A DNA stretch of 64,000 nt from Escherichia phage B9-1. How positions within the stretch are numbered: the stretch's first letter is position 1; each line of letters begins with the position of its first letter. This document shows positions 5,361 to 43,753 of this stretch, piece after piece. The stretch lies in the sequence record OQ420740.1. One strand, written 5' to 3'. A program made the position numbers and the translations under genes. Below the pieces are notes generated by a model. That model worked only from the letters and a program-made list of their open reading frames with translations, did not search any database and was not told the DNA's origin.

Positions 5361-5911
5361 TGGAAGCTTTCGAAAAAGTTTTTTCTGATCTTGAAACAAC
5401 CATCGCTAAGCTTGTCAAGGTTGCCACAGGAAGAACTGTAGTTCTGGCAGAAAGCTCTACCATACCGAAGCCGGAAGGTGAGTTTGTACTTTTGCAAACC
5501 CTGGCGATCAATCCCACCACTTGGGAAGATAATGAGTTTCAAGATGCGGAGGGTAATGCTTACGTCACCCACAGTTACACTGTCACTTATCTGTTAACAG
5601 CTTATCGCGGCAGGGCATATGCTGCACTTAGCAGAGTATTGCAAGCAATAAACCTTCCAATGTTTTATGACAAGTATTTCCCTCTGGGGTCGTGCTTTGC
5701 CTACTCTAACAATTCGACAATTTCACCTCAAAGGGTGCCGTTGAATAAGCAGACGTATGAAAATAGAGCCACCGTAATGCTGACATTTAACGTAAGGTTT
5801 GTTGAGACAGACATTGGGGCTTTTGAGGATCTTCAGGGAATTAAGGCTGAAATAACCACACACTTCCCTTCACCCAATTCTGGTAAAGCGGTTACAGACA
5901 GTGGTCAGTAA
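5360..5911 (+). CDS. hypothetical virion protein
   Basis: 183-aa ORF translationally coupled to upstream ORF; immediately precedes sheath gene. Confidence 0.5.
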   Translation: MEAFEKVFSDLETTIAKLVKVATGRTVVLAESSTIPKPEGEFVLLQTLAINPTTWEDNEFQDAEGNAYVTHSYTVTYLLTAYRGRAYAALSRVLQAINLPMFYDKYFPLGSCFAYSNNSTISPQRVPLNKQTYENRATVMLTFNVRFVETDIGAFEDLQGIKAEITTHFPSPNSGKAVTDSGQ

Positions 5912-5926
5912 TCGTTATAATTGTGT

Positions 5927-24252: not shown

Positions 24253-24677
24253 TGAGCACACACCCTCGTTTAGTGGACTGGCAAGAAAGATTGTGGAAAG
24301 TGTTTGACGAAGAAGCCACCGTCCCGTTTGAATGGGGATTCCACGATTGCTGCACTTTTGCGGCTAAGTGTGTTGATGCCCAATACGGAACAGATTTTCT
24401 TTCTAACTTTGAAGGAACGTATAAAACAGAGTTGGAAAGCAAAAGATGGTGCATGCTTCGTTTCAAAACCACACATCTGCCTACTATTTTTGATCTCTTT
24501 TTGACTCGACTGGATACTCCTAAACAGGTTCAGCGTGGTGATATTGTTATTTTCGAAGGTCTGAACGGGCTCACCGCTGGTGTGTTCTGGAACAACCAGA
24601 TTTGGGCGAAAGGTGATAAAGGGATCTTTATGTTCGACATGAAAGATTCTATCGTTGTTGATGTCTGGAGGTATTAA
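24252..24677 (+). CDS. small NlpC/P60-like tail protein (gpK / GTA g14-like, candidate)
   Basis: ATG 24252 overlaps upstream stop (TAATG); contains WGFHDCCTF (candidate catalytic Cys in a D-C context) and GDIVIFEG; about 141 aa as for phage NlpC-family tail peptidases. Confidence 0.35.
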   Translation: MSTHPRLVDWQERLWKVFDEEATVPFEWGFHDCCTFAAKCVDAQYGTDFLSNFEGTYKTELESKRWCMLRFKTTHLPTIFDLFLTRLDTPKQVQRGDIVIFEGLNGLTAGVFWNNQIWAKGDKGIFMFDMKDSIVVDVWRY

Positions 24678-27600
24678 TGCCAATTGCAATGATTGATAAC
24701 ATCGTTGCTTCTGCAAGATCTTCGAGCTATGACTGGAACGCATCCAAGGCAGCTCTGGCTGACAGCCTGAACACTGTTACCACCAGAACCCTTGATAAGA
24801 TTTTCGAAGGCAACAAATCTTACAGAAGTCAACAAGATAGACAAAAACTTCTCAGATCTTCTGCTGCACCTTGCTCTGTAGTATATGGGAAGACACGCAC
24901 ATCTGGATTGCTTGCGTTTTTAGAGCAGGACAGGGACAGAACCCTTCATTGTGCTATTGTTCTTGCCAATCATCCCTTGGAAGGTATAGAAGATATACTT
25001 ATCGACGGTAATCCTATTTCCTCGTATGGGGATTTGGTATCGTGGGAGTTGCATAATGACAGGAAAACCTCTGATCCTTTCATGGGCACACACTGCCCTT
25101 CGTGGTCACCAGACATGATAGGTAGAGGGATCAGTTGGCTACGTGCCAGCTTTAAGTTTGACCCTAACAAGTTTCCTTTTGGGTTGCCAAACGTTACACT
25201 CGTCAAGGTTGGTAAAAAATGTTATGATCCTCGTATCAGTAAAGAGGTGTATACCAACAACGCTGCCTTGGTGATTCTGGACTATCTAAGAACGTACCTT
25301 AAATGTCCTGACGAAACCATCAACTGGGAGTCCTTCAAGGAAGCTGCCAACATATGCGACGAGGCTGTAAAAAACGCGGACGGAACCAGTGAGCGCCGTT
25401 ACACCATTAATGGTGAGTTCGACATGGACGAAGCACCAGCAAGTATTATGGCAGAAATGCTGAAGGCTTGTGGTGCAGACCTTAGCTATGTAGCTGGCAA
25501 ATACGGTCTGCTGGTAGGTGCATACTATGGCCCGGCAACAATGACACTGAGTGAGGACTGTGTTTGCGGTGAGGTTAAGATCTATCCTGAAGCCTCCTTC
25601 GACAAAAGATCAAACACAATAACTGGGAGATTCACCAGTCCAACCAAAGGGTATTCTGAAACAGACTTCCCATCGGTGTTCGTACCTGAATGGGTAGAGA
25701 AGGACGGAGAAAGAAAGATAATTGATATAGATTATCGTTTTGTTACCAGTCCTTATCAGGCTCAGCGTGTTTCCGCAATATTCTTAAGACGTGCCAGAGC
25801 TGGCAGGATTATTGAAGTAACCTGCAATATGAGGGGTTTTAAATTTAAGCCTGGGCGTTACGTTACGATGGACCTCCCAAGTATTGGTATAGTGGGCCAA
25901 GAAATGAGGGTTCTTGAATGGGAGTTCACCAAAAAGGGCGGTGTCAAGGTAAAACTCCGTCAAGATGCTAAAGAGTGGAATGATGCCACAGGGCAACTTC
26001 CGGATTCTGGAGATGTGGATATTCCGATATCCCCGTCCGGTGTAGCTCAACCGCAAAACTTCAGATACTCTGTTCTTCAAGCTGGGGAAGTAACTCATGG
26101 TGTTTTGGCTTGGGACAACGTTGGAACTTATGCTCAAAATATTGTGCAGGTAAGAAAGAACGGAGAGATTATTTGGACAGCACAAACAGTCGAGCAGTTT
26201 GTCCGCGTAGAAGGATTGACCAAAGGGTCATACACAGCAACCGTGGTTGCAACATCTTATAAGGGTGGTGTATCTCCAGAAGCCTACTGCGAGTTCAACA
26301 TTCAAGCACCTGAAGCTCCTGTTTCTGTAGAAGTTAAGCAGGGATACTTTGCTATCACCTTGATTCCGCACAGCAGGGACTTAGCAAGTGTAAGCACCCA
26401 GTATGATTTTTGGACATCTGGTATGACAAGGTTGCCGGACACAAGTGATGCAACCGTTACTTCAAAAGCCACCCGTATGGGTGTTGGTTCAACTTGGACA
26501 TCTGAAGGTCTGCAGAACGATAAGATTTATTATTGGTATATTCGAACCACAAACGCTTTTGGTAGTTCTCAGTTTGTAGAATGCGCTGCACGCTGCTACA
26601 CCTCTATTGAAGATTTGATGCCTCAGATAGATGCTGAATTTAAAAAGACAGAAACTTATAAAGAGTTGATGAGCACTTTAGATTCCTCTATCGAGGAGGT
26701 TGAAAATCGTGTCACAGAGCTTAACAAGTACATGGACGGAAGGGTAGATGAGGCATTCCAACAACTTGGAGATAGGATAGGTGCGGTAGTTACAGAGACA
26801 ACTCAGAAGTTTGAGGATGTCAATGGAAATATCACAGCTCTGGATAGGAAACTTGTTGCTGCACAGAACAAGTTCACCAACGATCTGAACACTGAAAGTG
26901 GAAGACTGGCATCCCTGATCGAGACAACCAATAAAGCAACCACTGATCTTCTGAACAAAAAGACAGAGGCTTTAGACGAGAAATTGGTTGCAGCCAAAGG
27001 GGAGTTGGTAGAACAAATAAGTGGTGTGGAGAGCGGATACCTTGCCGGAGATAAAACTCTAGATGGCAAGATCAATACCCAGAGAACGGAACTTGATGCA
27101 AGCATCTTAAGCACCAACCAGGCGACAGTGGATCTTCTCAACAGGACATCTGAAACTCTGGATCAAAAGATCAGTCAGACAAACGCGACGGTATCTAAGA
27201 ACTATACCACCCTTGATGGTAAGATAACTACCGCAAAAACTGATCTCAATACCTTGATTGCCAATACCAACAAGGCCACCACAGATTTGTTGAATCAGAA
27301 AACCTCTGCACTGTCGGAGCAGATAACTTCTGCACGTGGGGAAATTTCTACCAACAAACAGGCGATTAAGGATTTAGATGGGAAGCTGACCTCCACAAAA
27401 ACAGCACTGGACGCTACAATCTCCGATACCAACAAAGCAACCGTGGATCTTATTAACGGCACAGCGTCAGCTATTCGTCAAGAACTTGCTGTTGCTAAGC
27501 AGGAGATCATTGATGATGTCGGTGATGTGTCAGAGCTTAGAGCTGCAGTAGCTACAACATCTAAGGCTGTGACAGACTTAGAGGGCAAAGTAAATGCTCA

Positions 27601-28516
27601 ATGGGGCACAAAAATACAGGTAGACTCCGCAGGGAATAAGTATGTGGCAGGTATCCAGTTAGGCATGGAAGGCTCTGGAGGCCAAGTTCAGTCATATTTC
27701 ATGGTTAGCGCAAACAACTTTGCGGTATACAACCCAGGCAATGGAACAGCAACCCTTGCTTTCGCAATCAAGAACAACCAAGCGTTCTTGAAAGACGCTT
27801 TTATAGAGAACGGCACGATCTCTTCTGCCAAGATCGCGCAAGAAATTTCGTCAAACAACTACGATGGCAATGGGTACCACAAATACGGTTGGTATATTAA
27901 CAAGAACGGGCACGCCCAGTTTATGGATGTGTGGGTGAAAGGTAACATCAACGCTAGTGCAGGTAACTTCACAGGGGCAGTTAACGCCACCAGTGGTACC
28001 TTCCGTGGGGATGTTTATGCCAACAATGGTAGCTTTAGAGGGACCATAGATGCAACAGGAGGTACATTCCGTGGACGTGTAGAAGCTTCCGTTATCCGTG
28101 CTAACCAGTTCGAAGGTGCGATTGTTGCACACAGGACTTACGGAGATTGTGCTCCAGTATATAACTCGCAGCAAAGGGTTTGCCGTTGGAGGTGGAGATA
28201 TGTGGACAACGTGCAAGGCCAAGGTAAAAACGTAACATTCTTCTTTAAACTGAACGGTACACTTGCTAATTCTCAATTAAACGCGTGGATAGCAGGTCAT
28301 CAGCTGCTTGCTGGCAAGAAGTATTTTAATAACAACGATGGCATGTGTGCAGTTGGGATAACAGGTCTAGGTGAACAAACTATAGACATTATTATCGAGA
28401 TTTACACACCCTGGTCAACAGGGAACGTGACAGGAGTTACAATATCTTGTCCTACAGTCGTTGTAAGTCGTTCTAACTCAAGTTTCCAGGGACCTTGGAA
28501 CGAGTCTCACGACTAA
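24677..28516 (+). CDS. central tail fibre / host-specificity protein, lambda J-like (candidate)
   Basis: 1279 aa; four tandem 45-aa repeats in a helical stalk (about 26830-27600); C-terminal segment QWGTKIQVDSAGNKYVAGIQLG...FMVSANNFAVYNPGNG resembles the conserved region of J-type host-specificity proteins as recalled. Confidence 0.5.
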   Translation: MPIAMIDNIVASARSSSYDWNASKAALADSLNTVTTRTLDKIFEGNKSYRSQQDRQKLLRSSAAPCSVVYGKTRTSGLLAFLEQDRDRTLHCAIVLANHPLEGIEDILIDGNPISSYGDLVSWELHNDRKTSDPFMGTHCPSWSPDMIGRGISWLRASFKFDPNKFPFGLPNVTLVKVGKKCYDPRISKEVYTNNAALVILDYLRTYLKCPDETINWESFKEAANICDEAVKNADGTSERRYTINGEFDMDEAPASIMAEMLKACGADLSYVAGKYGLLVGAYYGPATMTLSEDCVCGEVKIYPEASFDKRSNTITGRFTSPTKGYSETDFPSVFVPEWVEKDGERKIIDIDYRFVTSPYQAQRVSAIFLRRARAGRIIEVTCNMRGFKFKPGRYVTMDLPSIGIVGQEMRVLEWEFTKKGGVKVKLRQDAKEWNDATGQLPDSGDVDIPISPSGVAQPQNFRYSVLQAGEVTHGVLAWDNVGTYAQNIVQVRKNGEIIWTAQTVEQFVRVEGLTKGSYTATVVATSYKGGVSPEAYCEFNIQAPEAPVSVEVKQGYFAITLIPHSRDLASVSTQYDFWTSGMTRLPDTSDATVTSKATRMGVGSTWTSEGLQNDKIYYWYIRTTNAFGSSQFVECAARCYTSIEDLMPQIDAEFKKTETYKELMSTLDSSIEEVENRVTELNKYMDGRVDEAFQQLGDRIGAVVTETTQKFEDVNGNITALDRKLVAAQNKFTNDLNTESGRLASLIETTNKATTDLLNKKTEALDEKLVAAKGELVEQISGVESGYLAGDKTLDGKINTQRTELDASILSTNQATVDLLNRTSETLDQKISQTNATVSKNYTTLDGKITTAKTDLNTLIANTNKATTDLLNQKTSALSEQITSARGEISTNKQAIKDLDGKLTSTKTALDATISDTNKATVDLINGTASAIRQELAVAKQEIIDDVGDVSELRAAVATTSKAVTDLEGKVNAQWGTKIQVDSAGNKYVAGIQLGMEGSGGQVQSYFMVSANNFAVYNPGNGTATLAFAIKNNQAFLKDAFIENGTISSAKIAQEISSNNYDGNGYHKYGWYINKNGHAQFMDVWVKGNINASAGNFTGAVNATSGTFRGDVYANNGSFRGTIDATGGTFRGRVEASVIRANQFEGAIVAHRTYGDCAPVYNSQQRVCRWRWRYVDNVQGQGKNVTFFFKLNGTLANSQLNAWIAGHQLLAGKKYFNNNDGMCAVGITGLGEQTIDIIIEIYTPWSTGNVTGVTISCPTVVVSRSNSSFQGPWNESHD

Positions 28517-28621: not shown

Positions 28622-30112
28622 GTGGCTAAGTATGGATTGACAGAGGCTGGTTTCGTTATACCAACTCTAAATGACCTAATCGTTGAAACTAAGCAAAGCC
28701 TGATCCGTGCTTTTGGCGAAAACTTCAACGTACAAAGTAACTCCGTTGCAGATAAGCTGACCACTATCTTCAACGAGCGAGAGTATCAACTTATTCTTAT
28801 GGCAGCATCTGTATACGCATCGCAGACGCTGTATGGGGCAGAAGGTATTTACCTTGATGAACTTCTTGGAAGGCAAGGTATTTATCGAAGAGGCCGTTCT
28901 AAATCATCAGGTACTTGCCAGTTGACAATTAACACAACTGTGCCGTACAATATGATTTATGATTCCAAAACCTACACGCTGGACAGTGGCAACTTTGTTC
29001 TTAGCAACGATGTGCAGGTGGCGGGAAATCTTATTGCTCACAGAATAAACGCTCCAGACCTAAGAATTGGGAAATACAACTTTCAAATTACCAACCAGAC
29101 AGATGGAAGTATCAAAACAAAAAGTCTGGTTTTAACAGATAAGGCTCTGGACTCTTCTGATTTGCCAAGCTTTTACGGCGAGATTAAGCAATTCATTGTC
29201 GATAATACAACCCTGCTGAATGATGATTTAATTCAGATAGATATGTTGACAGGGACGTTGTGGATAGGGTACAATTCGAATCTTGATCAAGTTGGACTTA
29301 ATAGCAGGGTAGATTTCAGAGTATCCCCGATTGTAGGGGAAAGAACTATCACCCTAGATGTTATCGCTAACGAGGCTGGTGAGCTGTCAAGAGAGGCAGA
29401 AACCGTGACAACAATGTCACCTACTCCCAGTGGATTTATCAAGCTTACCAACCGAGAAAGATTCAATGAGGGCAGGGATGTTGAGAAAGACTCTGAGTAT
29501 CGCCTAAGAGCTTCCAGCACTAAGCAGTTAACATCTAAAGCTACCCGCCCTGCAATTCTTAGCGCTGTAAGCGAGGTGAAAGGTGTTGAGAAAGTAAGAG
29601 TGTTCTCCAACAACACCGATAAAACGGATGCGAAAGGTATACCACCTTATAAGTTTCAAGTGGTGGTGTTTGGTGGTGCAACAGAGGATATCTGTCAGGC
29701 GCTGTATCAAACCATAGCTTGCACAAACAGAACTTATGGGAATATCTTCTACGATATTACCACATCGGACGGTCAGACTGAAAGGATTTATTACTCCAAG
29801 GCAAATACCTACCGCCTAGATGTAAGAATTACCTACTCAGGTGCTGCGCTTTCCACAACCGAAAAAGATGCCATTGTAGAGGCTCTTTTGCAGGTTGTTA
29901 ACGGACTGGATGTTGCAGATACGTTGTACAATATTCAATTGGTTGGTGCTGCATCGGCTGCTGTGTCAATAGGCAGATTTAACAGACTTGTAATTCAAGT
30001 CAAACCTGTGGGGGCCTCTGATGAAGCTTACACCACAAACGATATTGTTGCAAACATGACTGAGGTGTTTGATCTAGACGAAAGTAATATAACTTTCCAA
30101 CAAACTATTTAA
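28622..30112 (+). CDS. baseplate J-like wedge protein (candidate)
   Basis: 496 aa, GTG start; N-terminal MAKYGLTEAGFVIPTLNDL and later AEGIYLDELLGRQGIYRRGRSKSSG resemble the Baseplate_J family pattern; followed by gpI-like and fibre genes as in P2/Mu. Confidence 0.45.
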   Translation: MAKYGLTEAGFVIPTLNDLIVETKQSLIRAFGENFNVQSNSVADKLTTIFNEREYQLILMAASVYASQTLYGAEGIYLDELLGRQGIYRRGRSKSSGTCQLTINTTVPYNMIYDSKTYTLDSGNFVLSNDVQVAGNLIAHRINAPDLRIGKYNFQITNQTDGSIKTKSLVLTDKALDSSDLPSFYGEIKQFIVDNTTLLNDDLIQIDMLTGTLWIGYNSNLDQVGLNSRVDFRVSPIVGERTITLDVIANEAGELSREAETVTTMSPTPSGFIKLTNRERFNEGRDVEKDSEYRLRASSTKQLTSKATRPAILSAVSEVKGVEKVRVFSNNTDKTDAKGIPPYKFQVVVFGGATEDICQALYQTIACTNRTYGNIFYDITTSDGQTERIYYSKANTYRLDVRITYSGAALSTTEKDAIVEALLQVVNGLDVADTLYNIQLVGAASAAVSIGRFNRLVIQVKPVGASDEAYTTNDIVANMTEVFDLDESNITFQQTI

Positions 30113-30123
30113 GGCGGTGAGAT

Positions 30124-30810
30124 ATGGCAGAGATTAAGTCGGATGTCAACCACATCCACACTCTGCCAGATTTTGTTCAGGGAGGTCTTGATTACCTCCC
30201 TGGGGATTTTCTGGCTGAGAAGGTTAATTTAGTCACATTCTTAACCGTGTACCTTAAAAGGTTGGAGAATGTTGATAAAATGCTGGTAGGCTTGGCTGAA
30301 GGAAGACTGCTTAACAATGCCAGCGGGAGATACCTTGACGAAGTTGGTAATCAACTTGGTATTCTTAGGAATGGTCTTTCAGACGCGGATTTTCGTGCTA
30401 CGCTGATTATTCAGCAGGCAGCATCATCAAGAGGTGGTACTCGCGAAGATGTCATCTCCACCTTACGACAGTTGTTCGGAAGAGATAATTTCGATACGTG
30501 GAAAGGTGACAATTTCAGGTTTGACATAAACATTAGAAAAACTTGCTTTGACATATTGCAGTCTATCGACCAGATCTTAGATATGCTGCCATTGCCTTGT
30601 CATTTGCGTCTTACGGAGTCGCAAGGGCAAGCTTTTGGTTTTGAAGGAGACTCTACAGCTCTCGGCTTCGGATCAGTGTGGGAAGAAAACCAGTTCGGGG
30701 TTGGTGGGCTGGCTACTTTGCTATATGTTCCTGACGTAAGACCTGATTGGGATACCACAACTATTTATTGTGAAAGTATTACAGTAAACGCAACTAGACA
30801 GGAGGGTTAA
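30124..30810 (+). CDS. baseplate/tail protein, gpI (DUF2313)-like (candidate)
   Basis: 228 aa after J-like gene; motif YLDEVGNQLGILRNG resembles the conserved L-D-x-W/V-G-x-x-L-G core of P2 gpI-type proteins. Confidence 0.35.
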   Translation: MAEIKSDVNHIHTLPDFVQGGLDYLPGDFLAEKVNLVTFLTVYLKRLENVDKMLVGLAEGRLLNNASGRYLDEVGNQLGILRNGLSDADFRATLIIQQAASSRGGTREDVISTLRQLFGRDNFDTWKGDNFRFDINIRKTCFDILQSIDQILDMLPLPCHLRLTESQGQAFGFEGDSTALGFGSVWEENQFGVGGLATLLYVPDVRPDWDTTTIYCESITVNATRQEG

Positions 30811-32882
30811 TGGCAACAGCTGTTTTTAAACCTTACCGTGATTACTCTACGATGGCTGCACGGTTTCATTACCGCACAGTTCAGGATACTGCAGTTCCGG
30901 GTAGGGATTATGATCATGTTGAGGGTGATGTAACTATCCCGGTTGGGGCAACCAGTATTGAGATCCCTGTAGAAATTGTTGACAAATTGCCAAACAGGTT
31001 GCCAAGAAGCTTCTTTATGGAGTTTTCATCAAACTCCCAAGGGGTTATGATTGGAACACAAAGAGCGAAATGTACAATAGTTTCAGATGAGAATCTTGAC
31101 AGAATATCTTGGGATACCGTTGAGGAGAGAATGTTTCACCCAAGATACTGGGTTACAACCACGCAGCAGACTGAAAGCACCTGTATTGTTGCGGATAATA
31201 ACTGCTGTATTAACCGTTTAGTGTCAAGAACATATGGAGGCATGGCTGGGTGCATTTGGGAAACAGTTGACAAGTATGACCATTTCGGCATTGGATTTGA
31301 TGATCACTACGAGATGAGAAACACCAAGCTTTGGTTCAGAATGTCAATAACCAATGCCAGCAACTTCTCCACCCCTGAAAAGATGATTATGACTGTAGAC
31401 CTTGTTGATGGTACAATCATCTATGTTCCTTTAGCTCAATATGCTGTCAGCATCTCAGAGGATAAGAATGTTGCAGAAATTCATATTGATTTCGAGGACT
31501 GCGTCGGGATGGACCAGAACAACAACATGATGGGTGTTGATCCTCGGCAGGTGAGAAGGATTTTAATACCGCTTATGCCTAAAGATTGGGTAAGTAATAG
31601 CACAGACCCAAGAACGGAAAATGTAGAGTGTGAGCTGCGTCTAGATCTGCTTCAGCCGGACACAGGCTGGAAAATGATGCAACTTAACAATATCCAGGTG
31701 AAAGAGCACGACGTCGGGATCTGCACAGCATATGACGATATGTGGAACGTATCCCCTTTAAGGGTGTTGAGCAATATCAAGCGTCTGGGCTATACCGGAA
31801 CCATAAATCATTATGTTGGTATGAGTCATTATTATGACTACACATGGTCAGGAACCCAATGGTCTATAAACAAAACAGGAGCTCTAAACGCTGCAGCTTA
31901 TAAATGGCATGATGATTTTATGTACAATGCCAAACGACATGACTTCGACGTTATGCAGTCTGTAAGCTTTGAGCTTTATAGCGATGCCTGCCCGTTGGAA
32001 TGGACCCAGAGAGACTGGAACGATAACTATGCTAAAACAGGCTATACGCCTTGTAGTTACCTCCTGTCTCCAACCATTGAAGAGGGTATGAATTTCCTTA
32101 CTGCAGTATTTAAGAATTTTGCATCAGCCGCTATGAGAAACAACCTGCCAGTGATTATGCAGATTGGTGAACCGTGGTGGTGGTTCAATACCGATACTCG
32201 TAAGCCTTGTATTTATGACTACCCTACAAAGCAGGCGTTTTATGATGAGACTGGTGAATATGCACTAGACATTGGGACTATTGACGATCCTAAAACTGGC
32301 GGTGTTTATGACAAGTATGTAGCATTTTGTCGTGGTAAGCTTGGCGCTCGTATTGTAGCCATTTCAAAGGCAATAAAAGCACACGCTGCATCGGCTCAGA
32401 TGACAGCTTTACTGTTTTTCCCCACTATTATGGAAACCGAGCTTACGCAAAAACTGAACCTTGCTGACCAATATAAAAAGGAAGCAGGTGCTCTTGATTT
32501 CTTCTGCACTGAGTGCTACGATTGGGTGATGCAGGGAGGTATTGAAAAGGCAAAAGAGTCTGTAAACATACCTATCGTTAAGTTAGGTTGGAAACCGTCT
32601 GAAATACAATACCTTGCAGGGTTCGTTCCTAGCAAAGAGCTTGCTCCGGTATATGGCTACGACCCAACCAGGAATTACCAAGAATTTTTATGGAGATGTA
32701 TTTGCGGAAACATGGCAACTATAGAGTATAGATACCCTGAGGTAAAACAGTATGTGTGGGCATACCCGCAAGTAATGTCTGACAGCATCACTGTTACCGC
32801 CAGAGATTCTACCGTTCTGCACATGGGGCAGGTTGCTCTAAAAGGGTATGTAGAAGATGTTGTTCCGCCAGACTTCTCATAA
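30810..32882 (+). CDS. tail-associated protein with N-terminal Calx-beta-like domain and large enzymatic-looking domain
   Basis: 690 aa; aa 14-58 (AARFHYRTVQDTAVPGRDYDHVEGDVTIPVGATSIEIPVEIVD) matches the Calx-beta pattern; remainder Trp/Tyr/Asp-rich. Confidence 0.45.
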   Translation: MATAVFKPYRDYSTMAARFHYRTVQDTAVPGRDYDHVEGDVTIPVGATSIEIPVEIVDKLPNRLPRSFFMEFSSNSQGVMIGTQRAKCTIVSDENLDRISWDTVEERMFHPRYWVTTTQQTESTCIVADNNCCINRLVSRTYGGMAGCIWETVDKYDHFGIGFDDHYEMRNTKLWFRMSITNASNFSTPEKMIMTVDLVDGTIIYVPLAQYAVSISEDKNVAEIHIDFEDCVGMDQNNNMMGVDPRQVRRILIPLMPKDWVSNSTDPRTENVECELRLDLLQPDTGWKMMQLNNIQVKEHDVGICTAYDDMWNVSPLRVLSNIKRLGYTGTINHYVGMSHYYDYTWSGTQWSINKTGALNAAAYKWHDDFMYNAKRHDFDVMQSVSFELYSDACPLEWTQRDWNDNYAKTGYTPCSYLLSPTIEEGMNFLTAVFKNFASAAMRNNLPVIMQIGEPWWWFNTDTRKPCIYDYPTKQAFYDETGEYALDIGTIDDPKTGGVYDKYVAFCRGKLGARIVAISKAIKAHAASAQMTALLFFPTIMETELTQKLNLADQYKKEAGALDFFCTECYDWVMQGGIEKAKESVNIPIVKLGWKPSEIQYLAGFVPSKELAPVYGYDPTRNYQEFLWRCICGNMATIEYRYPEVKQYVWAYPQVMSDSITVTARDSTVLHMGQVALKGYVEDVVPPDFS

Positions 32883-32894
32883 TCAGGAGATAAA

Positions 32895-33935
32895 ATGTCA
32901 AAACCTAGTTTTCCATTAGAGATTTGGGCAGAGGAGGATCAGGTTCTGCCTAACACCCACAGACAGAACAGGCTACGCCCGATTGATGATTTGTGGAGAA
33001 AAGGTTGGGATCTTGGTCAAAAGCCGTCATGTGAAGAACTTAACTATATTTTCAATATGCTCGGGACTTGGGCAAAATATATTGCTGACGAGCAGATCCC
33101 AGCCCAAGAAGGCCGTTATCTGGTACGTGATAATAACCTAAGTGATCTTTTGAACATTCCTGTTGCCCGTAGAAACCTTGGGATTATTACTAAGGAAGAG
33201 GCAGACACCAGGTATGTAAAAGTTACAGGCGATACAATGACAGGCCCCTTAGGTTTGCAGCGTATCAACTTTAAAGCTGCTGAGACAGATAAGGCTTGGA
33301 TAGAGACAACTATTGGCCCAGATAAGACAACTCTCGACTTTGGGTTAAGTGATAACACTGGGGCGTTTGATGATGGTGGCACATCTACAGTAGATGCGTT
33401 TCGTTGGAGATTCCAGCCAACTCAGCCAGATATTAATCCAGAGTTCACTTTGATGTACCTGAACGCGATCACGGCTAACCGTGCGCTGTTGAAAGTGGTA
33501 GGTAATGTTGAAGTTGTCGATAACATGCGGTGTAACAACCTTACCATTAGCAGCACAGCAACATTCACCAACTGTAATGTGGCTAGTCAGTTGACAGCTG
33601 GGTCCGTTTATGTTAATGGCGGCGCAAGTTGTGACAGTATGGTTGTAAGAAGCCAGCATTGTGTTGTCGGTAACAGAAATGTGGTGCGCTCTGTGAATGG
33701 AGTGACGGCTAACGGTAACGGCGATGTAACGATCACCATCCCGCAGACAGGGGTACAGGATATCAGAATCGGTGCAAGACTTGTTGATGGTGTTTCTGAA
33801 TCTCCAGTTCGCAACGGCTACGTTGTCACAGGTTGGCATTTTGGTGATAAAAAAGAGATGCGTGGTTCAACCTACTGGGCAGGACCTTTACAAAAACTTG
33901 TAAACGGTCAATGGATCACTGTTAATTATGCGTAG
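32895..33935 (+). CDS. tail fibre protein, paralogue A (P2 gpH-like C-terminus)
   Basis: 346 aa; paralogous to ORF 34948 in N-terminal region; C-terminus LQKLVNGQWITVNYA resembles the conserved fibre C-terminus (P2 gpH ...IQKYINGTWYNVAQV as recalled). Confidence 0.55.
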   Translation: MSKPSFPLEIWAEEDQVLPNTHRQNRLRPIDDLWRKGWDLGQKPSCEELNYIFNMLGTWAKYIADEQIPAQEGRYLVRDNNLSDLLNIPVARRNLGIITKEEADTRYVKVTGDTMTGPLGLQRINFKAAETDKAWIETTIGPDKTTLDFGLSDNTGAFDDGGTSTVDAFRWRFQPTQPDINPEFTLMYLNAITANRALLKVVGNVEVVDNMRCNNLTISSTATFTNCNVASQLTAGSVYVNGGASCDSMVVRSQHCVVGNRNVVRSVNGVTANGNGDVTITIPQTGVQDIRIGARLVDGVSESPVRNGYVVTGWHFGDKKEMRGSTYWAGPLQKLVNGQWITVNYA

Positions 33936-33949
33936 ATCGGAGGACTAGC

Positions 33950-34534
33950 ATGAAAATACTTCAAGAGTTTAAACTTTACCAACCGGGATCTGGCGAATAC
34001 CACACCAACAAGGAGACCAAGGAGCTGACTCCTCAGGAGGTTGAGGATTACACAGCATACACTGGATATTTTTTACGTAATGATGATGGCGATTGGTATG
34101 TGCAATCACGAACACTGCGACAAGAAAATCCAGGCTGTATCTTCTTACTTGTTGACGAGAAGGGTATTCTTAAGACATCTACAGAAGAACCTGATGCCTT
34201 GTGGCCTGCTCCGGGTCTTCGTGTGGTTATCGCCAAAAAAGAAGAGGTACCAGAAAACATTATGCTCCACCACGACGCTTTGCGTTTAGTTGGTGATGAA
34301 TTTGTCACAGACAATGAATTCTTTGTTCAACAGGCAGAGGGTGTCATAGAGACAGAACTTGCTTGGGCTACTGCTAGAATTGGTGCCTATCAAGACATGA
34401 TTGACCTTGAATACGATCTTACTGATGACCAAAAACGCAACATCAGAGATTTGAAAATGTACAGGGTAAAACTTCTTGAAATAGATACATCTAAAGCCCC
34501 TGACATTTTCTTCCCGGAACGACCTACCCTCTAA
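33950..34534 (+). CDS. tail fibre assembly protein (Tfa-like chaperone)
   Basis: 194 aa directly after fibre paralogue A; C-terminal LAWATARIGAYQDMIDLEYDLTDDQKRNIRDLKMYRVKLLEID...FFPERP resembles the Tfa family conserved region. Confidence 0.5.
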   Translation: MKILQEFKLYQPGSGEYHTNKETKELTPQEVEDYTAYTGYFLRNDDGDWYVQSRTLRQENPGCIFLLVDEKGILKTSTEEPDALWPAPGLRVVIAKKEEVPENIMLHHDALRLVGDEFVTDNEFFVQQAEGVIETELAWATARIGAYQDMIDLEYDLTDDQKRNIRDLKMYRVKLLEIDTSKAPDIFFPERPTL

Positions 34535-34545
34535 GAGGAGGTGTT

Positions 34546-34860
34546 GTGGAGTTGGATTTGGCGGCATTGTACGGTATCTGCATGGGTACCGTTGTCCCGA
34601 TCTGTGTATGGGCTTTCAACCAGTGGCACACCAAATGGAAAGGCATTTCCAAGAGGTTGGATGAGCTGGAGAAAGACCTCATTTTAGTGAAAAATAGCAT
34701 GGTTACAAAAGATAGACTTGATTCCATTATTGAAACCCGGTTAAGTAAGCTAGAGGCTGATATCAACGACCTTAAGCAAGATGTCAGGACAGATGTCTCC
34801 GGTATCAGAGCTGATGTGCAAAAGATTTTACACATGCTTGTAGAGCATAGTAAAAGGTAA
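34546..34860 (+). CDS. small membrane protein with N-terminal hydrophobic segment and charged helical domain
   Basis: GTG start after GAGGAGG; aa 5-27 hydrophobic (LAALYGICMGTVVPICVWAF), remainder charged helical-type; 104 aa; followed by terminator. Confidence 0.45.
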   Translation: MELDLAALYGICMGTVVPICVWAFNQWHTKWKGISKRLDELEKDLILVKNSMVTKDRLDSIIETRLSKLEADINDLKQDVRTDVSGIRADVQKILHMLVEHSKR

Positions 34861-34870
34861 ACAAAGGCCA

Positions 34871-34900
34871 GAACGGCAAGGATGCCGTTCTTGCATTTTG
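34871..34900 (+). terminator. rho-independent terminator
   Basis: Stem GAACGGCA / TGCCGTTC, loop AGGA, then TTGCATTTTGTT. Confidence 0.5.
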
Positions 34901-34919
34901 TTCTCTAAAGTGTTAAAAT
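34891..34919 (+). promoter_or_regulatory. sigma70-like promoter (TTGCAT, 17 bp, TAAAAT) overlapping terminator tail
   Basis: -35 at 34891-34896, -10 at 34914-34919; upstream of fibre paralogue B. Confidence 0.4.
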
Positions 34920-34947
34920 AGTCCTTAAGGAATTTTCTCAGGAGAAC

Positions 34948-35994
34948 GTGATGACTAAACCAGTTATCCCTCTTGATATTTGGGCCAATCAGGATGTTGT
35001 GCTTGAAAATACGGGAGAATTGAATAAGTCCCAACCAAAAAAAGAAGAGAGATTGAAAGGTTGGGATATGACACAAAGAGTGGCATGTGAAGTTGTTAAC
35101 TTTGAACTTCACATGCTTTCTGCGTGGTTAAAGCATTTAACAGAAGATGTTGTCCCAGGATGGGATAATAGATTCTTAAGGGTCACTAATAATCTGGCAG
35201 ACGTTCCAGACAAAGCTGCTGCACGTCAAGTTCTCAATGTATACTCGCCTGAAGAAATGGATGACCTTTATGTTGACAAGACTGGAGACACAATGATCCA
35301 GACTCAAACTTTAGGTCTTCAAAGAATTGAGTTTGCATCTGCGTCAACAGACAATGCGGCGATATACACCACCATAACTCCAGACAAGACGATGATGGAT
35401 TTCTGGATTATGGACAACATCGGTGGCGCTGACGGCACAGACCTTGATGATCCTTCTCACCAAATAGACGGTTTCCGTTGGAGATTTCAACCTTCTGGTG
35501 GGCAGCCTGTGTTTTCGGCTATGAAGCTCAATGCTATAACTGCCAACCGTGCAAGACTGGCTATCCAAGGAAATCTTGAATGCAATGATGCAAAAAGCTC
35601 CTCTGCAAATGCCAATGCGGTAACGATACCAAGAGCCACTGTTAATGGACAACAATCCTGCGGCAGCGCTCAAATAGGTGGAAGAGTAGATTGTAACGAT
35701 AAAACCGCCAGGGGTCAATATGCAACAGTTGGTGGGAGAAACGTGGTCCGCAGGGTAAATGGTAGTAGCGCAGATAGCAGTGGTAACCTTACTATCCCTA
35801 TGCCTAGTAGGGGTGTTGAAGATGTAAGGATAGCAAACCGTTTCAGAACCACCTACAGAGAATCAAGAGTATACCCTGGGCATGTAATGTGCTCCGGCAA
35901 TTACGCCTATAAACACCCGTATCAAGGTGACTATTGGACTGGTGCTATTCAAAAATTTGTAAACGGTCAATGGATCACGATATCTTATGCTTAA
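34948..35994 (+). CDS. tail fibre protein, paralogue B
   Basis: 348 aa; N-terminus MMTKPVIPLDIWANQDVVLENTGELN parallels MSKPSFPLEIWAEEDQVLPNTHRQN of paralogue A; C-terminus IQKFVNGQWITISYA. Confidence 0.55.
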   Translation: MMTKPVIPLDIWANQDVVLENTGELNKSQPKKEERLKGWDMTQRVACEVVNFELHMLSAWLKHLTEDVVPGWDNRFLRVTNNLADVPDKAAARQVLNVYSPEEMDDLYVDKTGDTMIQTQTLGLQRIEFASASTDNAAIYTTITPDKTMMDFWIMDNIGGADGTDLDDPSHQIDGFRWRFQPSGGQPVFSAMKLNAITANRARLAIQGNLECNDAKSSSANANAVTIPRATVNGQQSCGSAQIGGRVDCNDKTARGQYATVGGRNVVRRVNGSSADSSGNLTIPMPSRGVEDVRIANRFRTTYRESRVYPGHVMCSGNYAYKHPYQGDYWTGAIQKFVNGQWITISYA

Positions 35995-36003
35995 AGAGGG
36001 TAA

Positions 36004-36270
36004 ATGAAATTAACTCAGTTTTTATGGGGGTTGGTTGCGGCATCTGATGACCCTACGAAAGTGTCCCAATCTAAGCTATGGTCAAACATAGGCATGGCAG
36101 TGATGACTGGGGTGTTTATTCATATGGGGTACAATGATACGCTTCCTGAATGGTATGCGTGGATATACGCACCTTCGGTAGCTTGCCCCCAGCTTATTAG
36201 CAAATTCATCTCGCTCCGGTGGGGTTGCCAGCACCCTGACCACGTTAAAAACGAAGAGCAAAAAGCTTAA
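36004..36270 (+). CDS. small hydrophobic protein (holin-like topology, speculative)
   Basis: 88 aa; two hydrophobic stretches (LWSNIGMAVMTGVFIHMGY; WYAWIYAPSVACPQLISKFISL) and a charged C-terminus (HPDHVKNEEQKA). Confidence 0.4.
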   Translation: MKLTQFLWGLVAASDDPTKVSQSKLWSNIGMAVMTGVFIHMGYNDTLPEWYAWIYAPSVACPQLISKFISLRWGCQHPDHVKNEEQKA

Positions 36271-36279
36271 GGAGAAATC

Positions 36280-38025
36280 ATGGCGCAAGACATGACAAGC
36301 TTTGAGCAGGCGGTAGATCAAGTAATTGTTGATTCTGAACGTTTGCACTTGGTTGTCAACGGCAACGCTGTGGATGAAGTTGTCGTAGAGGATGGGACCA
36401 CTATCCCTACGGTACGAAAAGCCATGCTTGACAACCTTTATTTTAAAACGCCACCGATCCCTTGGGCGTATGGTGCATCCACAACAGTTTTTAACCAGTT
36501 GTATGAGTTTAAAGGGGATACAGGCACTCAGTGGTGGTACGCCCCCGCAGCATCAAAATCTAACCCGGTTAGGATGCCAGCAGATCCTTCACAATCTCCG
36601 AACTGGAGATTATACACCGATTCTGCAGTAATGGCAAAATACTACGCAAAACTTAACAGCCCAAGGTTCGAAGGTGACCCGAGAGTACCTACACCTCCGA
36701 TGGATGATAAGTCAGAGTCTATAGCAAACACAGAGTTTGTTGTTGACTATGTGGATAGCATATTTAAAGCCATGGAGGGGATGAAAGTTACTGTAGGATC
36801 TTTGGTGGTAAAAGGTCTTACAGAACTTGCCAACACCATAGTTGGGGGCACCCTTACCTTACACGGACCTGTTAATGGAGCAGATTCTACTGCACGCTTC
36901 AGGAACCTAATCCTTACGGCAAATACTTCTACACTAACTTTTGCGTGGAGCGATCCTAAGCATGCAGACTGGAGAAGCACAGAGCTGCAACCTCATGAAG
37001 TATCAACTCACAGAGTTATAGCTGACACTATAACTTCTGGGAAACCAGTGGCTAATAACAACGATGTGCATTTTGATGGTCTAGGTAATAACTTTTTTGA
37101 CTACGTGTACATTCGTGGTAATGCCATGAAGGCAGCCACCGAACCGACATTGCAGGTTGATGGGACCACTAGGGTTAAGAACCTTGAGGTGACAGGCACC
37201 GTTACAGGGATAACCTACTCTGTAGATGGCACCATGATCTACCCTAGCTATATTGAAAGCACGGGAGATGCACTGATCAATGGAGATTTAGAGGTTGGTG
37301 GATCTATAGTCATTCGTGGCACAGCATCTGTCCAGAACATATCTTTAAATACTCTGAGGGTGAATGAGCGTGCCACTTTTGAAGGAGAGGGGCTTACAGC
37401 CAACAAAGGTGTAATTACCGAGCTGACAACCACCACTCTAACTGCAACAACTGCAAACTCTGAAAACTGCAACGTTACCAGAAACTTGCAGGTAAATGGA
37501 GATGTTAGTTTAAACGCAGCAGGGACGGGCACTACCTACCTTCACAACCTTGAAATATCAGGTACAGTGACTGGGTGGCTGCCAGACTTCTCTAATGTCA
37601 ACTTTGTCTGTAATGGCATTAACTCCAGTGGCAAGATAACCACCTCTCAAGAAATTGAAGCTGGTAAAACTATTACTGCCCCTGCTTTCCATGCAGGGAA
37701 GGTGGAGTTTGACTTAGAGGAGGCTGACGCATCTAGTGGGACATGGACACCTAACGGGCAGGCCAATATGTATGTTGTCCACGCGAAAGGGGATTTTACA
37801 ATAGGGCAATGGCCTGGAACATCGGCTGAAGATAAACCTTACCCGTTCACTGCAATCATCTATGTCATTCAAGATGCTGTAGGCCACAACGTGACTTTAC
37901 ACGATAAATATGCCATACTGTCGGCTACTCCTGTTATTAACAACAAAGCCAACAGTGTCACCTTGCTACAATTGACATATTGTGGTGTTGGTGATATTGT
38001 GGATGTGGTTATTGCACAACGTTAA
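36280..38025 (+). CDS. tail fibre protein (581 aa)
   Basis: RBS AAGGAGAAATCATG; Thr/Gly/Asn/Val-rich beta-type composition with short repeated motifs (LTATTANSEN, GTVTGITYSVDG, ISGTVTGWLPD); within fibre cluster. Confidence 0.5.
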   Translation: MAQDMTSFEQAVDQVIVDSERLHLVVNGNAVDEVVVEDGTTIPTVRKAMLDNLYFKTPPIPWAYGASTTVFNQLYEFKGDTGTQWWYAPAASKSNPVRMPADPSQSPNWRLYTDSAVMAKYYAKLNSPRFEGDPRVPTPPMDDKSESIANTEFVVDYVDSIFKAMEGMKVTVGSLVVKGLTELANTIVGGTLTLHGPVNGADSTARFRNLILTANTSTLTFAWSDPKHADWRSTELQPHEVSTHRVIADTITSGKPVANNNDVHFDGLGNNFFDYVYIRGNAMKAATEPTLQVDGTTRVKNLEVTGTVTGITYSVDGTMIYPSYIESTGDALINGDLEVGGSIVIRGTASVQNISLNTLRVNERATFEGEGLTANKGVITELTTTTLTATTANSENCNVTRNLQVNGDVSLNAAGTGTTYLHNLEISGTVTGWLPDFSNVNFVCNGINSSGKITTSQEIEAGKTITAPAFHAGKVEFDLEEADASSGTWTPNGQANMYVVHAKGDFTIGQWPGTSAEDKPYPFTAIIYVIQDAVGHNVTLHDKYAILSATPVINNKANSVTLLQLTYCGVGDIVDVVIAQR

Positions 38026-38034
38026 TATATCTGA

Positions 38035-38059
38035 CCGCTCCTGACGGGGCGGTTTTCTT
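38035..38059 (+). terminator. terminator-like hairpin
   Basis: Stem CCGCTCC / GGGGCGG (one G-T wobble), loop TGAC, then TTTTCTT. Confidence 0.45.
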
Positions 38060-43722: not shown

Positions 43723-43753
43723 AAAAAAGGGGCCAAATGGCCCCTTTCTTTTT
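43723..43753. terminator. bidirectional rho-independent terminator at strand switch
   Basis: Stem GGGGCC / GGCCCC, loop AAAT, flanked by AAAAAA upstream and TTTCTTTTT downstream; converging plus and minus blocks meet here. Confidence 0.75.

Follow-up and report, generated by a model that had tools for sequence, protein, structure and literature searches.

Two paralogous short tail fibre genes beside a single chaperone gene in the rV5-like Escherichia phage B9-1

The short-tail-fibre locus

The DNA analysed here, a window of 64,000 nucleotides (nt) from Escherichia phage B9-1 (OQ420740.1), contains two short tail fibre (STF) genes, named A and B, with a gene for a tail fibre assembly (Tfa) chaperone directly downstream of A. 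Over a region of 6.1 kb, identity to Escherichia phage ECP32 is 98.8%, and 117 records match, nearly all of them from rV5/FV3-like Vequintavirus phages. The window is that of a Vequintavirus (rV5/FV3-like) phage, and the locus constitutes the short-tail-fibre module of this myophage. With lengths in amino acids (aa) and the equivalent rV5 products, the locus comprises the following genes, or open reading frames (ORFs), and signals.

32895..33935, + strand: short tail fibre A, 346 aa, rV5 gp33 (phrog_4465, E 2.5e-171)
33950..34534, + strand: tail fibre assembly chaperone Tfa, 194 aa, rV5 gp32 (PF02413 Caudo_TAP, E 8.1e-12, residues 121-192; phrog_136, E 2e-36)
34546..34860, + strand: 104-aa protein, rV5 gp31 (phrog_5345, E 1.1e-48)
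34870..34891, + strand: terminator-like hairpin (9-bp stem, weak T tract) separating the 104-aa ORF from B
34898..34935, + strand: predicted late promoter of B (rV5 'P030'), core GTGTTAAAATA at 34910-34920, by match to the rV5 Table S4 sequence
34951..35994, + strand: short tail fibre B, 347 aa, rV5 gp30 (phrog_4465, E 6.5e-164)
36004..36270, + strand: 88-aa membrane protein, rV5 gp29 (phrog_1322, E 2.7e-32)
36280..38025, + strand: tail fibre protein, 581 aa, rV5 gp28, closing the predicted P030 unit (phrog_4549, E 2e-251)
38033-38054: terminator-like hairpin, rV5 t028

The ATG at 34951, preceded at 6 nt by an AGGAG box and annotated as the start in curated relatives, is a more likely start of B than the alternative GTG at 34948.

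A and B align end to end by BLASTP, with 153 of 356 positions identical (43%, E 4e-95). The phrog_4465 'tail fiber protein' profile (342 positions) spans residues 1-346 of A and 2-348 of B, a full-length family match for both. On this sequence similarity, which is far beyond chance, A and B are true paralogues, and the two paralogous fibre ORFs reported by the first-pass annotation are confirmed. Hidden Markov models of the N-terminal domain, the shaft and the tip gave zero matches to further ORFs of the window.

The similarity is distributed unevenly. In a sliding-window comparison, identity is 27-50% over residues 1-105, 46-68% over residues 106-196, 11-33% over residues 197-254, where relatives carry insertions and deletions, about 50% over residues 255-284, and 26-41% over residues 285-332 in the rV5-like phages; the last 15-20 residues or so are highly similar. 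The earlier description of conserved ends flanking a divergent centre is thus wrong, as residues 106-196 are the best conserved stretch and the N-terminal 105 residues are much less alike. Of the terminal motifs said to be shared, the C-terminal one is present (A ends LVNGQWITVNYA and B ends FVNGQWITISYA), but the close similarity is confined to those last residues and does not extend to the N-terminus.

The rV5 pair gp30/gp33 and its gp32 have been published (Kropinski 2013, PMC3606486; Maffei 2021, PMC8594841, S5D Fig). Little allelic variation among the paralogues was noted in the latter study. The rV5 locus is the same locus, with genes of 346, 194, 104, 347, 88 and 581 aa in the same order, a stated paralogue identity of 42.3%, and a P030 sequence (Kropinski Table S4, PMC3606486) identical to that of the window bar one extra T in the window. 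Nothing of substance differs, and the window represents another isolate of the genus. The idea of two lipopolysaccharide (LPS) chemotypes for the two fibres is also found in Kropinski 2013 (PMC3606486), so that both the observation and its main interpretation are already known. The feature is real, correctly spotted and ordinary; the pair has been in the literature since 2013, it adds no new system, and the evolutionary details given below are incremental.

Three points go beyond the published work. A is the ancestral copy, and B has taken the place of a 157-aa membrane-protein gene; the stable difference between A and B is concentrated in the N-terminal attachment domain; and in one lineage the tip has been exchanged, tips being able to pass from one paralogue to the other with a single chaperone retained. 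Together they pose a concrete, testable question about the baseplate architecture of rV5-like phages and the roles of gp30 and gp33. These are common, broad-host-range E. coli phages that are used for typing and considered for therapy, and which fibre carries out irreversible adsorption matters for host-range engineering.

Origin, retention and exchange of the two copies

By tblastn, two fibre copies are present in every rV5-like genome (about 116 cultured records; A 95-99.7% and B 95-100% identical), and one copy in Avunavirus, Seunavirus, Mydovirus and phi92-like phages. The single-copy gene order is STF, Tfa, a 104-aa ORF, a 157-aa polytopic membrane ORF, an 88-aa membrane ORF and a large fibre. 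B occupies the exact slot of the 157-aa gene (phrog_7451), which lies at 5449-5922 in locus L005, 5497-5970 in L006 and 7958-8431 in L015; no remnant of it is detectable in the window by tblastn. The ORF at L015 has a precomputed Pfam hit to Phage_phiTE_239, and a fresh Pfam scan of two homologues gave no match. The neighbouring genes are retained: the 104-aa ORF is kept 3' of Tfa in all relatives (33% identity to homologues in Av-05, SalP219, GAP31 and Seu621), the 88-aa membrane protein is 51-58% identical to its counterparts in single-copy relatives, and homologues of the 581-aa fibre bear PF26208/PF26209 Phage_phiTE_241.

Three small membrane proteins sit inside the tail-fibre cluster of the relatives. 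One transmembrane domain ('1 TMD') is listed for rV5 gp31 in Kropinski Table S3 (PMC3606486), and weak PHROG matches to lipoprotein and Rz-like spanin families are seen for the counterpart of the 104-aa ORF in phi92-like phages.

Identity to the single-copy STFs is 42-48% for A and 38-39% for B. Neighbour-joining analysis of residues 1-284 groups A and B in one clade with 81% bootstrap support; support for this clade is 0% on residues 1-105 alone, because B forms a long isolated branch there. In a search with B, B-type proteins were found only in the rV5-like lineages, and B is therefore without a donor lineage. Judged by position and sequence, A is the ancestral gene: phi92 gp147 and the one short fibre encoded in related genera are its positional orthologues. 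The simplest reading is that A was duplicated on the stem branch of the rV5-like phages and that B, the duplicate, then diverged fast.

Two further two-copy lineages with the same layout, L010 and L013, were found in metagenomic contigs, giving three lineages in total. Identity to the window is 88% for A, 77% for B and 78% for Tfa in L010, and 73%, 45% and 45%, respectively, in L013. At 3265-3618 of L013, the homologue of the 88-aa membrane protein has 117 aa, with an extra charged C-terminal tail.

A comparison within the genus, of the window with phage JeffSchatz, gives ratios of nonsynonymous to synonymous substitution rates (dN/dS) of 0.020 (A), 0.067 (B) and 0.010 (Tfa). At the deeper splits, amino-acid change is 2-2.5 times as great in B as in A (dN 0.169 vs 0.086, and 0.496 vs 0.198). 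This faster evolution is the one feature that would fit B as a redundant or decaying duplicate without function, a reading to which we give almost no credence: the ORF is intact in the roughly 116 cultured genomes and in three deep lineages, B has its own conserved promoter-like element and ribosome-binding site, and its low dN/dS together with universal retention effectively refutes a pseudogene. Both copies are under purifying selection in every genome examined, in three diverged lineages, and B is a functional, faster-evolving gene and not a relic.

The clearest trace of contact between the paralogues is found in L013. The N-terminus of its B protein is B-type (50-70% identity with other B proteins, against 23-47% with A), but over the last 60 residues or so its identity reaches 83-93% with A from the same genome and falls to 14-28% with other B tips. 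The A and B tips of L013 also share states absent from the window A and from the outgroups, such as the ending VQTL, which argues for exchange between paralogues rather than ancestral retention. The L013 B protein is a mosaic in which the B tip has been replaced by an A tip. Nucleotide identity between the two L013 tips is only 59-88%, against about 50% elsewhere, so the exchange is old. As the L013 B protein carries an A tip and yet a B-type N-terminus, receptor specificity cannot be the conserved reason for the duplication.

Evidence for exchange at the 3' ends in the window and in L010 is suggestive but not conclusive. The last codons of A and B share exact runs of 22 and 29 nt (window and L010, respectively), and their synonymous choices agree within a genome and differ between genomes (GTA-AAC-GGT-CAA in the window, GTC-AAT-GGT-CAG in L010). 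The fraction of identical codons is 0.67-0.77 over the last 20 codons, compared with about 0.3 elsewhere, and the sole notable DNA repeat between A and B is a 3' segment of 63 nt with 78% identity. Against conversion at these ends, the synonymous signal is modest, with a run-length permutation p of 0.016 in L010, and in the window the longest run lies elsewhere, at residues 36-50 (p 0.047).

Attachment domain and tip

In a phmmer search over all Protein Data Bank (PDB) sequences, residues 1-108 of A match the phiTE STF (9CUY, 9cuy_c) with E 1.2e-19, and residues 2-84 of B match it with E 1.5e-8. The phiTE structure shows STF residues 3-92 as the joint by which the fibre is fixed to the wedge 1 protein. 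The corresponding wedge genes of the window lie upstream of A.

28622..30112, + strand: large baseplate wedge protein, rV5 gp36, 496 aa, Baseplate_J-like (PF04865, E 4e-9; phrog_6)
30124..30810, + strand: small baseplate protein, rV5 gp35 (phrog_4056 'baseplate protein', E 2.3e-103)
30810..32882, + strand: lateral fibre protein, rV5 gp34, 690 aa, N4 Gp65-like TIM barrel (PF23845, E 1.2e-79; PF23844; Calx-beta)

We matched rV5 gp36 to phi92 gp145 and phiTE wedge 1, the carrier of the short fibre, by synteny, as it has the same place upstream of the STF in the phi92-like locus; the equivalence of rV5 gp35 and phi92 gp146 is likewise by synteny only. A follows the wedge genes, with the 690-aa gene interposed as in Av-05, and is followed by Tfa; B comes after the 104-aa ORF instead. 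PF23845 in the 690-aa protein is the TIM barrel of the N4 Gp65-type 'non-contractile tail sheath', and recent papers tie the NGR glycan receptor to the class of the 690-aa (gp34) protein.

We defined a B-specific site as one conserved in at least 85% of the other family members (A-type and single-copy) and changed in every B-type protein. There are eight such sites, P19, R28, I30, W34, G41, K43, Y51 and K100, all within residues 19-100. They make up 8 of the 43 conserved sites in residues 1-105 and 0 of the 40 in the remainder (Fisher p 0.006), and the B-type N-terminus is retained in three of three two-copy lineages. As the B-specific changes are confined to the domain homologous to the phiTE joint, the anchor of A and B is not a common one, contrary to what had been assumed. 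The most consistent difference between A and B is at the baseplate-docking N-terminal end, and not only at the receptor-binding tip.

This result bears directly on the proposal that A and B share one anchor and differ in their receptor-binding parts, so that fibres differing in LPS specificity would occupy the same sites as alternatives, with B borrowing Tfa. The proposal, in essence that of Kropinski 2013 (PMC3606486), draws on the low identity of the rV5-like tips (26-41% over residues 285-332), on the single Tfa, and on the relatives, in which only six canonical wedge sites are known. It conflicts with the restriction of the B-specific changes to the attachment domain and with L013, where the tips are nearly the same and the N-termini are still distinct. 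In addition, all Vequintavirinae tested by Maffei 2021 (PMC8594841) have the same LPS-core dependence, without sign of two specificities. We consider this proposal doubtful as a whole. Alternative receptor specificities are in themselves possible in the rV5-like phages, whose tips differ.

The closest structural references for A are single short fibres. phi92 gp147, termed 'fiber III' in a 2026 cryo-electron microscopy study, is a Mu-like, downward-pointing fibre present as six trimers on the large wedge protein, and it is 98.2% identical to the single-copy STF of PaulScherrer. Like A, phi92 gp147 and phiTE gp236 (9CUY) have the homologous N-terminal wedge-attachment domain, and in phi92-like phages the fibre gene also stands just after the wedge genes and before Tfa. 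Both phages differ from the rV5-like phages in having one short fibre copy. The phi92-like STF is distant from A and alignable at the two ends only (38% over 76 aa and 60% over 57 aa), and the phiTE STF is longer (554 aa) and contains a coiled coil as well as Ig-like domains; flagella binding has been proposed for it. A and B belong to this Vequintavirinae short-tail-fibre family, which includes phi92 gp147 and the phiTE STF, and have a tip of the Mu gpS type.

The tip assignment is based on the C-terminal region. In the search over all PDB sequences, residues 286-343 of A, and of A only, match Mu gpS (5YVQ) with E 1.2e-6; the aligned gpS region is 440-501. Pairwise comparison with Mu gpS gave E 1e-6 for A and 0.004 for B, and Foldseek returned 5yvq_A as its sole significant match (E 8.4e-7). 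Pairwise BLASTP against P2 gpH gave E 0.001 for A and 0.017 for B, over the last 60 residues or so. Outside these residues no significant similarity to gpH or gpS was found, bar one weak, repeat-like match of 64 aa to Mu gpS (E 2e-4). The first-pass label 'P2 gpH-like' is therefore apt for the last 60 residues or so and not for the rest, and Mu gpS is the better match.

P2 gpH shares with A this terminal region, including the motif PIQK-x-ING-x-W, and the order of fibre gene and Tfa gene (gpG in P2); it differs in its length of 669 aa and lacks similarity over the other 280 or so residues. The Tfa of the window matches Mu U' with E 4e-5 and Mu U with E 0.003, whereas BLASTP against P2 gpG gave no match; Mu gpU and the Tfa of the window belong to the same family. 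N-terminal homology between Mu gpS and A or B was not found.

Mu and the rV5-like phages are alike in encoding two alternative fibre ends per genome. In Mu, the tips are switched to S'/U' by inversion of the G segment, each with its own chaperone. The window, unlike Mu, has two complete genes on the same strand, a single chaperone and no invertase, and no inverted repeats flanking A and B were found, which excludes a Mu-like invertible switch.

T4 gp12, an LPS-core-binding short fibre that triggers contraction, is comparable in its proposed role, and it folds with the chaperone gp57A and not with a Tfa. It was absent among the phmmer matches to all PDB sequences with E up to 1. HHpred matches to a gp12 domain were reported for rV5 gp30 and gp33 (Kropinski 2013, PMC3606486).

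Chaperone use and mounting of the two fibres

The Tfa gene begins 15 nt past the A stop codon. Its product scores 45.9 bits against PF02413 (cut-off 22.1), with residues 121-192 on profile positions 60-130 of 131. A search of all six frames of the window with the Tfa profile matched this one ORF and found no second Tfa. A tblastn search of phage genomes likewise yielded a single copy for each complete genome (246 places in 244 records). The observation that only A has a Tfa gene downstream therefore stands. Compared with L010 and L013, the N-domain of Tfa is 72% and 43% identical and its C-domain 86% and 53%. According to PMC9608196, citing North 2019, Tfa binds the distal C-terminal region of the fibre, where trimer assembly begins, through a variable N-domain, and Mu Tfa remains on the virion.

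B probably uses the Tfa of A (gp32). With a single Tfa and with C-termini that are alike within each genome, shared use is the most economical explanation of the sequences, and the signs of exchange between the paralogues at that end are in line with it. The points on the other side concern the tip and the transcription of B. As the A and B tips are only 26-41% identical over residues 285-332 in the rV5-like phages, one chaperone would need to accept two different tips.

B is preceded by a 90-nt spacer, which is absent from the single-copy relatives, where the ORFs overlap. The stem of the hairpin in this spacer is preserved in the three lineages, via three compensatory double changes in four sequences, and its AAGGA loop is conserved. 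Downstream, the block TTGCATTTT...TG-n-TAAAATA is kept across the three lineages. We rejected TTGCAT-N-TAAAAT as a repeated motif, as it has one match in the window; the relevant repeat is the published late-promoter core. With the hairpin and then the P030 sequence before B, A and Tfa fall into a predicted P036 unit, separate from a predicted P030 unit of B, gp29 and gp28 that ends at 38033-38054.

It is accordingly conceivable that B folds without Tfa, by itself, with host chaperones, or with the help of gp31 (104 aa) or gp29 (88 aa), the C-terminal motif being a requirement of the fold only. The separate units and the unlike tips of the rV5-like phages are in line with this, as is the occurrence of the motif P-x-QK-x-(I/V)NG-x-W throughout the family, Mu and P2 included, which makes it partly a fold signature. 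However, the 104- and 88-aa proteins are also encoded by single-copy phages and are therefore not specific to B, no second Tfa-like gene was found, the similarity of the 3' ends within a genome exceeds what amino-acid conservation entails, and this fibre class generally needs Tfa. We regard Tfa-independent folding of B as unlikely.

A common start of assembly at the C-terminus, the most similar part of A and B, could also be taken to favour heterotrimers, that is, one fibre type of mixed composition nucleated by the similar C-termini, the more so as the central residues 106-196 are well conserved. Such trimers are improbable. With a shaft only 11-33% identical over residues 197-254 and interrupted by insertions and deletions, and with different N-terminal joints, a regular three-fold structure is hardly expected; A and B are in different predicted transcription units, and there is no precedent among the relatives examined.

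As a whole, the best explanation, to which we assign a probability of roughly 55%, is that A is the ancestral fibre with its Tfa and B an old copy, both being LPS-core-binding short fibres that share Tfa, with B mounted differently. A consists of an N-terminal joint homologous to the joint between the phiTE fibre and the large wedge protein, a short shaft, and a Mu gpS-type tip. A and B would each form downward-pointing homotrimers that bind the LPS core and help to trigger contraction, as proposed for phi92 fiber III, and both would be folded from the C-terminus by the one Tfa. Such folding would account for the likeness of the last 20 residues or so within a genome and for the exchange of the tip in one lineage. 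Since the attachment domain is the constant difference between A and B, B is probably mounted elsewhere on the baseplate, through a different contact or partner, and would not be a same-site alternative to A. Different core structures may be bound by the two fibres of rV5-like phages, given that their tips are unlike as well.

A stronger version holds that the duplication has been conserved for mounting and not for receptor choice. B would dock at a second baseplate position or on another fibre, giving two sets of fibres folded by one Tfa, with C-termini kept compatible by exchange. We put this version forward only tentatively.

Several points weigh against our preferred explanation. In phi92 and phiTE each wedge contains a single large wedge protein, which leaves only the six canonical sites, and a second site is not known; for the same reason we rejected an arrangement of 12 quasi-equivalent wedge sites. 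The uniform LPS-core dependence of the Vequintavirinae gives no hint of different core structures for the two fibres. The text on rV5 (PMC3606486) counts gp30, gp32 and gp33 among the detected virion proteins, but the mass spectrometry table of 19 proteins in the same paper has no entry of 346 or 347 aa, and Table S3 marks gp34, but not gp30, gp32 or gp33, as supported by mass spectrometry. Finally, AlphaFold2 monomer models of A and B are poor (predicted local distance difference test scores of 64 and 60, predicted template modelling scores of about 0.3), which leaves the domain boundaries without structural support.

Some further observations concern the rest of the window and the database records. 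The rV5 gp37 tail protein (1279 aa, 24677-28516) repeats a coiled-coil-like segment (…TNKATTDLLN-K/Q-T-x-AL…) several times, as noted on visual inspection of the translated sequence. At 43726-43747, a strong hairpin (GGGGCC…GGCCCC) corresponds to the rV5 bidirectional terminators t026/t027. Its position coincides with the turn of the cumulative GC skew (about 43-51 kb) and marks the point past the 1878-aa fibre gene at which transcription changes direction.

About 16-21 GenBank records labelled 'Campylobacter phage' with C. jejuni as host (MG065635, MG065662, MG065672 and similar) have 94.8% identity to the present E. coli rV5-like region, and other 'Campylobacter phage' records are 98.8% identical to phi92-like phages; these host labels look wrong.

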